Shown here: positions 60,001-63,000 of the stretch, piece after piece
Numbering within the stretch: position 1 is the stretch's first letter
Layout of the letters: each line of letters starts with the position of its first letter
Source of the DNA: Escherichia coli O157:H7
GTDB taxonomy: Bacteria > Pseudomonadota > Gammaproteobacteria > Enterobacterales > Enterobacteriaceae
Assembly: GCF_013167455.1 (NCBI RefSeq)
Contig: NZ_CP038328.1
Reading direction: 5' to 3' (one strand)
Length of the DNA stretch: 64,000 bases
Position numbers: made by a program

Positions 60001-63000
60001 CCAGTATTCTGCCGTTATGGAATGCTGACATTGATTCACGGCCTGGCTTAACGATAACCAGACCGAGTTCCGGTACCAGAACAGGTCGAAGTAATACCCG
60101 CACATTACCTCCAGATCCGTTGCTGGAATGTGCGGGACGGACGCGGTGGCCGTTCGGAGTAAGGGAGCCTGACGGAGATTATCCAGTGACGGTAGTCGAG
60201 GCTAAGGGCTTTTTTAACCTCGCATCCGCGCCTGCGGTAACACTGAATGAGCCATTCGGCCTGTTCTTCAGTGCATGGGGGATGCTGGTACCAGTCAGAT
60301 TTGAATGCGTGAAAACACCGTCCGCGCCTGCTGGCAAAGACGGCAGAATCATCAGAATTGTATAATTTGGTATCGTGCGCCATCGGTTGTCTCTGCTGGC
60401 GCAGCAGGTGCCAGTTGTTCAGGCTGGCGTGCGAATTGTAAACCAGAATGCCAGGAAAAAACAAAACCCGCCGAAGCGGGTTAAGTGCGGGTGCGTTGAG
60501 GATGCCTGATTCATCAGAGGTGGCGAGGGATTTCTCCCCCGCCAGGTCTCTTACTCCTCAGGTTCGTAAGCTGTGAAGACAGCGACCTCCGTCTGGCCGG
60601 TTCGGACTCGTACCTCGCAGAGGTCTTTCCTCGTTACCAGTGCCGTCACTATGACGGTTAAACAGATGACGATCAGGGCGATTAACATCGCCTTTTGCTG
60701 CTTCATAGCCTGCTTCTCCTTGCCTTTCGGCACGTAAGAGGCTAACCTAGATTTGCCGTTCATAGATTGAGCCTCAGATTAATGTTAGGCGTCTTGCAGG
60801 ACGCGTAATGTTAACTGGGGCTTTTCTCTATCTGCCGTTGGTGTTCATGCCCGAGGCAGATAGCCTCAAGCACCCGCAGCTATTCTACTTAACTTCCCAT
60901 TACCTCGCCAATATGAAATCGGTCAGAAAGACAGACGTCCCATAAGGACAACAACGGAAAAAGAGATTTTGCTTGATGCTATTTACCTCTGCACCATGAA
61001 GTTGCGCCAAAATCCCAGTGGTGATAACAGGAATTTGGTTGTTGGTGATTGGGGAAAGAAGTACGTTAGACTGTGGGTTAGTTCATTGACATGATAGTTA
61101 CCTGCCTTCAATTTCCTAAGCAAGCGATGTAAACGATAATCAATATCAAATGTATTGACAGGTAAAATAATAACGATGTACCTTTGCTGATAACATATAT
61201 CAGTCTTAAATCATAATGGAGGTAGATAAAATAACTAAACACACACAACAAATTTTTTATCAGTGACATAGCATATCTTAAGCATCCTTTAATGCTCATG
61301 GGGAGAACGCATGACTAAACATATGGACATTCATTGTCAAACACGCATATTTAACTCAATTAACCATGACACCAAATATAAAATATGTATTTTTACTCCA
61401 AAAAACATTAAAAAAAATAATGCAACTCTTTATATACTTGATGGGAATAGTGCCAACAATTACATTTCTGATATTCTGCCTGTTATTGATGCACTACCCA
61501 ATCCACCAGTGTTAGTTACACTTGGTTATGAATCTTGGAATAACCTTAGCATTCATCGCCGTGCTTACGATTATACTCCTGATGGTGAAAATGCTATTGT
61601 TGATAACTCTAAACCAGCATGGATCTACTTTACTGGTGGAGGAAGCCAGTCTTTCCGAGAATTATTACTAACTCAGATCATGCCATGGGTTAGTACTATT
61701 GCTCCGAACAGTTCCAGAATCGGTATATGGGGACACTCGCTAGGTGCTATTTTTGTGCTTGATTGCTTAAAAAATAATTCATGCTTTAACTATTATTATA
61801 TATCTGCACCATCACTTCTATGGCAGAATGAAAGAATCATCAAGATAATTAAAGATGATATATCAGAATCAAAGCACACTAAAAGTATATGCTTGCTTAA
61901 CGGAAATCTTAGCCTTGATTACTCCGCATCTTTATATCCTGAAGCCATCAAAGCGGAATCTGTTTTGAGAAATATTTTGACAGAAAAATACAGTAATTTT
62001 TCTATTGTACAATTTCCAGAGCTCAATCATCAGGAGACTTTCTCTGCTGCACTCTGGAATAGCATTATTCATTTCAGCATATAACAGAAAATATGTAATC
62101 ACTTTATCAATCTAGCTAACATAACTGATATCAATCCTAATGGGTCTTTGAACATATTAAAAGATAACTTCTCATTTGTACATTGTTGTGTTCTTAGACC
62201 CATTTCAAAAATACTATTTTTTAGATACTAATAATTACATCCATTTAGCTATCTTCTAAATACTCCTCTCAGTTTCTTCATTGGAGCTGATTCAACTCCG
62301 GCAATGCATACTAGGATCATTTTATAAGCATACAAACAACATCCAGACTGTGAATTATTGCTATTCATTTTCTATGTATCTGCTCTTTTCCCATCCACTG
62401 AAACACCAGAATCCAAAGGTTTCATGTTATTTTCACTATTCCATCATTACTCCTGTGTAAAATATCAAAACTCGCTGCATCACTTCACTGTTACGGCACT
62501 CACTACAAATTATGTTCAATTGCCTGTCATAGCGGCGTATTTCTCCGTCTGGTAATGACCAGATAAGGTCAGGATCAACCACAACCGGTTTCTTCAGTTT
62601 TGCCCTCGATAGTTTTTTGCGGGCGTTTTGCCAGTCCTTACGAGCCTGTTCAGATGGGAATAACCCGTAACCAGAGTTGTATACATCGCCACTGGCAACC
62701 AGCTCTCTGGCAAGAACGCTCATCAGATATCTTGTCGCACCTGTCTTGGCTTCCAGTTGCCGTAACGTCTCGCGCCCACTCCGGCGTACTAGCTCAACAA
62801 CCTGCCCTTTAATTTTTTCCCGCTCTTCCTGTGTAAATACTTTTGCCATAAGCGCCTCCGGCAATCACTTTTCCGATACAACACGGCGGGAAGAATCAGT
62901 AATCTGTCGAACAATATCCCGGTGCTTGTTCAGCTCCCGCAGCGCGGCGCAGACTCGCTCCCACTTCTGAACATCACTTTTCGCCCTGCGCAGCGCCAGG

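Follow-up and report, generated by a model that had tools for sequence, protein, structure and literature searches.

Genes and features of the locus

On the minus strand of a 64,000-nucleotide stretch of Escherichia coli O157:H7 DNA (contig NZ_CP038328.1; hereafter the window), a small toxin gene of the Hok type is found within a longer reading frame, mok, and is surrounded by a series of regulatory elements encoded on both strands (Table 1). Reading both strands for ORFs, the 51-aa hok ORF proved to coincide with the last 51 aa of the 70-aa mok ORF, the start codon of which (ATG, 60763-60761) has the sequence GAGG 8 nt upstream. The toxin matches the Pfam family HOK_GEF (PF01848) with an E-value of 1.5e-22 and 79.4 bits (cut-off 22), as well as PHROG 251, ‘MokW-like host killing’ (1.3e-32), and in tblastn it is 98% identical to K-12-type HokD (50/51 residues), the sole change being I34V. 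A preliminary description of this DNA had pointed out a HokD/RelF-like ORF of 51 aa and an in-frame mok-like extension, both of which are confirmed here.

Regarding nomenclature, the name given by PGAP on identical O157:H7 DNA is ‘type I toxin-antitoxin system toxin HokD’. Since the NCBIfam models score under their cut-offs (48.4 vs. 73 for the Hok subfamily and 38.6 vs. 89 for HokA), leaving no HokD call at the HMM level, this name must come from another rule. An out-of-frame position of mok relative to hok in R1 was rejected, the R1-type locus having an in-frame mok of 71 aa; as mok is in frame with hok there, and likewise in 933W, an in-frame mok extension is normal for the family. HokD served as the toxic positive control in a 2026 survey of Hok proteins, in which hok was also reported as enriched in prophages.

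Towards the end of the coding sequence, the UACG motif for A-to-I editing by TadA, which would change Tyr47 to Cys, is invariant in the 61 aligned loci, and editing at this codon has been reported for K-12 hokD (6%). The local hairpin around the site (60548-60586) is no better than those of shuffled sequences (z +0.61); the motif is conserved and no formation of a tRNA-like loop is claimed.

Table 1. Features of the hok/mok/sok locus, with positions numbered from the first nucleotide of the window and nt referring to the predicted hok mRNA unless stated otherwise.
Feature	Coordinates	Strand	Basis
Predicted full-length hok mRNA, ~420 nt	60456..60875	-	5' end, Rfam match; 3' end, intrinsic terminator
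hok promoter: -35 TTGGCG (60911-60906), 18-nt spacer, -10 TAGAAT (60887-60882)	60882..60911	-	promoter scan, 9/12 consensus match
tac element GGGUGCUUGAGG, nt 1-12	60864..60875	-	folds
5' stem-loop ctatctgcc/ggcagatag, arms 60863-60855 and 60836-60828	60828..60863	-	fold, covariation
ucb (anti-SD) box AGCCCC, nt 54-59	60817..60822	-	folds; element scheme of Le Rhun 2022
mok Shine-Dalgarno (SD) GAGG, nt 101-104	60772..60775	-	8 nt before mok ATG
Hypervariable block (21 nt) spanning the region of the mok start codon, nt 1-16 of Sok and the 5 nt between Sok -10 and start	60750..60770	.	alignment
mok ORF, 70 aa, including hok in the same frame	60551..60763	-	ORF listing
dcb box AGCCUC, nt 133-138, overlapping Sok -10 of the other strand	60738..60743	-	truncated fold
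hok SD AAGGAG	60721-60716	-	
hok (HokD-type) CDS, 51 aa	60551..60706	-	Pfam, tblastn, PGAP
UACG, TadA A-to-I editing motif at the Tyr47 codon (Tyr to Cys)	60565..60568	-	sequence
GC-rich 3' stem-loop directly after the stop codon	60522..60543	-	present in all folds
fbi element CCUCAACGCACCC, nt 375-387	60489..60501	-	pairs with tac in MFE
Intrinsic terminator of hok mRNA: 7-bp stem, 5 GC pairs, T-run	60456..60482	-	terminator scan
Sok promoter: -35 TTGCCT (60720-60725), 17-nt spacer, -10 TAACCT (60743-60748)	60720..60748	+	identity to sokW
Predicted Sok antisense RNA, ~71 nt, U-tract to ~60829	60755..60825	+	maps onto 933W SokW

The hok mRNA leader and its predicted folding switch

The predicted +1 of the hok mRNA is G60875, with which the first position of the Rfam model RF01794 (‘sok antitoxin’) aligns. 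The match to this model (60875-60701, minus strand) scores 105.6 bits (E 6e-23; gathering score 59) and spans model positions 1-157 of 157, starting with the tac sequence GGGUGCUUGAGG and stopping three bases beyond the hok AUG. Despite its name, RF01794 describes the leader of the hok mRNA, its central part being the complement of Sok, and the R1-type locus confirms this hok-sense orientation; as the match lies on the hok coding strand, from the 5' end to the AUG, it speaks for the hok leader and only indirectly for Sok.

The folding of this RNA was considered with the elements as defined by Le Rhun 2022 and Faridani 2006, all folds being computed in silico and unconstrained. The full-length RNA has a minimum free energy (MFE) of -175.6 kcal/mol (z -7.9 vs. 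shuffles), and in this fold tac is paired with fbi and the mok SD (nt 101-106) with the ucb box, and the hok SD sits inside a hairpin. The nascent RNA of nt 1-30 forms a hairpin of -18.8 kcal/mol that sequesters tac by pairing it with nt 19-29. When the RNA is truncated at nt 365 or 372, that is with fbi removed, the fold switches to tac/ucb and mok-SD/dcb pairings and the mok start region is presented in a hairpin loop; the partner of the mok SD hence changes from ucb to dcb upon 3' truncation, the dcb pairing being seen in the truncated fold only. In these models, the published three-state folding pathway of the hok switch is reproduced without being imposed. The GC-rich stem-loop that follows the stop codon is likely to act as a road-block for 3' trimming, by analogy with R1 (Faridani 2006).

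Support for these helices comes from a covariation test on 61 full-length homologs, the tested structure being derived from the window sequence itself. Standard pairs occupy 94.8% of the cells vs. 31-42% when the partners are slid, and 13 pairs are changed on both sides vs. 2.8 in shuffled alignments (0/500 shuffles reach 13) and 3-6 in slid ones. Compensatory changes are seen in the 5' hairpin and in the Sok-target hairpin. The helix of the 5' hairpin, with 99.8% of its cells paired, accounts for two of the pairs changed on both sides, from A-U to G-C and from C-G to U-A. The long upstream hairpin noted in the preliminary description, with arms of 9 bp, is thus present in the MFE fold and carries compensatory changes, and a covariance-model search, which it had proposed, gave the RF01794 match. 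For tac, 98.9% of the cells are paired. Among the 61 loci of the HokD clade, the tac/fbi helix varies too little to give any covariation, and its compensation is visible only in comparison with the R1-type locus, where the 5'/3' closure is kept at the same positions with other bases (GGCGCUU/AAGCGCC).

The predicted Sok antisense gene

As to whether a Sok-like antisense RNA is encoded, which the preliminary description had left undecided, the in silico answer is positive: the sequence features of a Sok gene are found on the plus strand and the RNA is predicted. Its -35, spacer and -10 recur unchanged in sokW of phage 933W, from which the segment before the transcription start differs only at -5 and -2. 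Positions 60755-60825 correspond to the SokW RNA annotated in the GenBank record of 933W, and 63/71 nt of the predicted RNA are identical to it. In the predicted fold (dG -35.9, z -5.8), a long hairpin separates a 5' tail that is left unpaired from a U-rich tail. A scan for consensus promoters did not flag the Sok promoter, which is a weak sigma-70 match (4/6 and 3/6), and for this reason the promoter call leans on its identity to sokW.

Genomic context and distribution

The locus sits in the nin region of a lambdoid prophage, between replication/Ren-like genes on one side and DUF968/HNH, RusA and Q on the other. The gene order, as obtained with PHROGs in the window and found alike in O157:H7 chromosomes, is Ren-like/DUF977, AT-rich hydrolase-like, hok, phrog_1212, DUF968/HNH, RusA and Q, and E. 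coli O157:H7 chromosomes carry the locus with 100% DNA identity. Upstream of hok, the AT-rich alpha/beta-hydrolase-like gene, on the opposite strand, is the only ORF over a distance of 1.7 kb. K-12-type RelB, RelE and Rem queries gave nothing in the 64-kb window, where the best tblastn E-values (0.26, 0.67 and 0.65, respectively) are those of chance matches; the statement in the preliminary description that relBE-like ORFs are missing upstream of hok therefore holds for the window as a whole.

Of 5426 complete E. coli genomes, 3915 have a match to 80% or more of the locus and were counted as carrying the full-leader form, and 1166 have the relE-hokD junction of K-12. In K-12-type loci, similarity to the present locus begins only ~15 nt upstream of the hok ATG, and relBE has therefore replaced the leader, the mok start and the Sok gene, in agreement with K-12 hokD having been published as without canonical components. 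Conversely, the window carries a full leader where K-12 has relE and is thus not organized as a relB-relE-hokD operon. The relBE-hokD arrangement of K-12 is the rarer, derived and truncated form, and the locus studied here is the full-length form of what survives in K-12 only as a leaderless hokD behind relBE. Of the earlier interpretation, the assignment to HokD/RelF-like type I toxins, mok-like extension included, stands; the oddity attached to the lack of an adjacent relBE was a K-12-centred misframing, as HokD without relBE looks odd only to an eye trained on K-12. Many prophage copies of hok/sok, of which this locus is one, have already been tallied in O157, with 14 Hok/Gef genes in Sakai (Fozo et al., 2010).

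A hypervariable block at the Sok tail

Variation along the locus is uneven: prophage loci of the HokD type hardly vary in toxin, leader scaffold, Sok promoter and Sok hairpin, but differ widely in one short block. In the alignment of 61 loci, this 21-nt block averages 0.80 bits/column, whereas the remaining UTR segments stand at ~0.2, the mok body and the Sok promoter at 0.065 and the hok CDS at 0.03. Over 108 distinct IMG/VR loci, the block exists as 18 alleles, 8 of which are common, and all of the same length. Three singleton alleles aside, the mok ATG and the reading frame are kept, and codons 2-5 of Mok change freely. The Sok tails of the alleles differ from one another at 2-7 of 11 nt, and the duplexes predicted between tail and target average -24.4 kcal/mol for cognate pairs vs. 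-9.6 kcal/mol for non-cognate ones. Between copies of the same genome, the Sok-tail alleles differ in 8/9 multi-copy IMG/VR genomes, a proportion indistinguishable from chance because ~86% of random pairs would differ as well.

In R1, Sok first contacts its target loop through the 11-nt tail (Faridani 2006), and on that ground the alleles plausibly set separate antitoxin specificities. From the observed variation, we tentatively infer both orthogonality and selection for it: positions 60750-60770 might form a specificity cassette rendering the antitoxin of each copy orthogonal, so that the 6-14 copies per O157 genome would each guard only their own prophage, a reading that we hold as possible but somewhat less than even in probability. 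If the alleles are orthogonal, this would explain how many near-identical type I modules coexist without cross-neutralisation, and a ready-made set of orthogonal antisense switches would be at hand. This discrete series of Sok-tail alleles is the only part of the locus that could repay work.

Proposed mechanism and alternative explanations

All the cis elements of a canonical hok/sok system are present, namely promoter, tac, ucb, mok SD, dcb, fbi, 3' hairpin, terminator and Sok gene. Judging from the sequence and the modelled folds, the locus is very probably a type I toxin-antitoxin module of the hok/mok/sok family, complete and seemingly intact, carried by an O157:H7-type lambdoid prophage. 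For its mode of action, the elements and folds were obtained in silico and the remainder is drawn from R1 and hokW-sokW. Hok toxicity, neutralisation by Sok, cleavage of the duplex by RNase III and activation by 3' exonucleolytic trimming have been demonstrated only in relatives (HokW/sokW, HokD as toxic control, and R1).

Accepting this analogy, the promoter at 60911-60882 would drive an mRNA of ~420 nt starting at 60875, the tac element of which would be held in a metastable 5' hairpin during transcription. In the finished RNA, tac would pair with fbi and the mok SD would be sequestered by ucb, excluding both ribosomes and Sok. Slow 3' trimming up to the GC-rich hairpin (60543-60522) would remove fbi and let the 5' part refold into the tac/ucb and SD/dcb pairings, exposing the mok start region in a loop. 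Sok, which would be constitutive and unstable (plus strand, ~60755-60825), could then bind this loop by its 5' tail and block the translation of mok and hence the coupled translation of hok, the duplex being degraded. Should Sok synthesis stop, the pool of stable hok mRNA would be translated, and the 51-aa Hok would enter the inner membrane, causing depolarisation or lysis. By analogy with hokW-sokW, the role of the module is likely to be prophage retention and/or help with lysis on induction. With low confidence, a link to induction may also be put forward: since hok is co-oriented with the early-right genes leading to Q, read-through from the early promoter on prophage induction could run against the Sok promoter.

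Two other explanations deserve to be weighed against an intact module. The toxin could be an orphan, its antitoxin lost or never present, kept silent by non-expression like the relBE passenger of K-12. K-12-type loci are indeed without leader, mok start and Sok, the hok homologs of K-12 except hokB have been described as inactivated, and the promoter scan flagged no antisense promoter here. Yet the window retains the entire 170-nt leader that is missing from K-12, the Rfam match extends over the full model length, and the experimentally supported sokW has a near-identical antisense promoter and RNA, which leaves the orphan explanation barely credible.

Another explanation would accept that all the parts are in place and regard the module as an intact but inert relic, neither killing nor stabilising, like the chromosomal loci hokA, hokB and hokC according to earlier reports. 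Constraint on the hok CDS and regulatory boxes (0.03-0.07 bits/column in the 61 loci) beside a freely varying block speaks against this explanation, and so do the helices maintained by compensatory changes, the mok frame left intact in 15/18 alleles and the activity of the sister locus hokW-sokW, which affects phage release. Even though the prophage looks degraded in related strains and IS insertions lie nearby, an inert relic is considered quite unlikely, and the locus is best regarded as an intact hok/mok/sok module.

Comparison with known systems

The archetype of the family, hok/mok/sok (parB) of plasmid R1, shares with the present locus the same layout, the in-frame mok, the tac/fbi closure and the logic of the ucb, SD and dcb boxes, and its Sok is likewise made of a tail, a hairpin and a U-tract. 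The two diverge markedly in sequence, the R1 toxin being only 38% identical to the toxin described here and the tac/fbi closure being written with other bases. Besides, the Sok-target hairpin is ~16-21 nt longer here than in R1, which appears as an insertion in the Rfam alignment, and the R1 system is plasmid-borne whereas this locus is prophage-borne.

With hokD (relF) of the K-12 Qin prophage, located in the relB-relE-hokD operon, the likeness concerns the toxin, which differs at a single residue, and what follows it: the 3' UTR, fbi and terminator are the same, and the downstream neighbours are, as here, a DUF968 gene and an antiterminator. The K-12 gene is however without a promoter of its own, tac, ucb, mok start or Sok, relBE standing there instead, and K-12 has rem, which is not found in the window.

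The closest characterised system is hokW-mokW-sokW of the Stx2 phages 933W and Sakai prophage Sp5 (Plunkett 1999 annotation; Takada et al., 2021, PMC8621323), with 92.9% DNA identity over the locus. Identity is complete in tac, the 5' hairpin, ucb, the mok SD, dcb, the -35, spacer and -10 of Sok, the Sok hairpin and fbi; both loci encode an in-frame mok of 70 aa and a toxin of 51 aa, and the published primers YO-351 and YO-597 (Takada et al., 2021, PMC8621323) match the window exactly. The differences lie in the C-terminus of the toxin (TAYEPEE vs. VDYESEK, with 46/51 residues identical overall), in the 3' terminator and in the position on the phage genome, hokW lying towards the right end of the genome record of 933W and the copy studied here in the nin region. 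Six of the first 10 nt of sokW differ from those of the Sok predicted here, so that sokW represents another allele of the recognition tail. HokW was shown to be toxic, and sokW to be detectable and to neutralise HokW; mutating the -10 of sokW abolished the antitoxin activity and unmasked the toxicity, while mitomycin C removed sokW, induced HokW and raised phage release about twofold (Takada et al., 2021, PMC8621323). Next to this relative, the locus described here is a real feature but an ordinary member of an already known system.

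Leader, antitoxin tail and editing site of the hok/mok/sok locus

Regarding annotation, the match to Rfam family RF01794, labelled "sok antitoxin (CssrC)", lies on the hok-sense strand and extends from the 5' end of the hok mRNA to the hok AUG; the family therefore models the hok leader and not the Sok RNA, and "sok" annotations taking the strand of RF01794 would sit on the wrong strand.

A 21-nt hypervariable block spans the mok start region and the 5' tail of the predicted Sok RNA. Among 108 distinct prophage loci, this block occurs as 18 discrete alleles, and the hok/sok locus outside it is nearly invariant. 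Across these alleles, mok codons 2-5 are not conserved, although the mok frame is kept, and the predicted tail-target duplexes of Sok average -24.4 kcal/mol for cognate pairs vs. -9.6 kcal/mol for non-cognate pairs.

Within hok itself, the TadA motif at the Tyr47 codon is invariant (61/61 aligned loci) and, judging from the sequence, A-to-I editing at this codon would recode Tyr to Cys. In the hokD of K-12, editing at this site has been reported (6%). The local hairpin at the Tyr47 site is no better than those of shuffled sequences (z +0.61).

Landmarks of the surrounding prophage

The ALIL pseudoknot marks an IS element within the prophage late region. The tRNA-Ser(TGA) gene may be the point at which chromosome and prophage meet, suggesting prophage integration adjoining a tRNA-Ser gene. 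The first tRNA of the three-tRNA cluster is Ile according to PGAP vs. Met-CAT according to ARAGORN. Immediately downstream of this cluster, the STnc100 match is flanked by the Q antiterminator and a gene for a 616-aa SASA/NanS-like esterase; in Stx phages, stx is carried at this position.

Features in and around the hok/mok/sok locus
Feature	Coordinates	Strand	Remarks
cspA-type thermoregulator leader	5170-5592	-	150.9 bits
tRNA-Ser(TGA) gene	24418-24505	+	~19 kb from cspA-type leader
ALIL pseudoknot	52814-52930	-	IS3-family programmed-frameshift element; 121.5 bits
STnc100 sRNA	55460-55650	-	Rfam match, 138 bits
Three-tRNA cluster	55727-55976	-	ARAGORN: Met-CAT, Arg-TCG, Arg-TCT
TadA A-to-I editing motif	60565-60568	-	UAC of Tyr47 codon + G; from sequence
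RF01794 match	60701-60875	-	
Hypervariable block	60750-60770		21 nt
AT-rich insert	60951-62435		Directly upstream of hok; 34% GC vs. 52% in window
Alpha/beta-hydrolase/esterase-like gene	61311-62084	+	257 aa; PHROG 8493, function unknown
DUF977/Ren-like gene	62436-62864		142 aa, intact

Comparison with related loci

The DUF977/Ren-like gene is uninterrupted here; in O157:H7 strain PV15-279 (L001, 1602-4465), ISEc8, an element of the IS66 family, has inserted into it and divides it. The window therefore derives either from another O157-type strain or from a prophage copy that lacks this interruption. Next to the DUF977/Ren-like gene, the hydrolase-like ORF within the AT-rich insert is encoded on the strand opposite to the prophage early genes. 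The slot holding this insert is occupied by relBE in K-12 and by paa/adfO in PPompW phages; it looks like a cargo hot spot directly upstream of hok.
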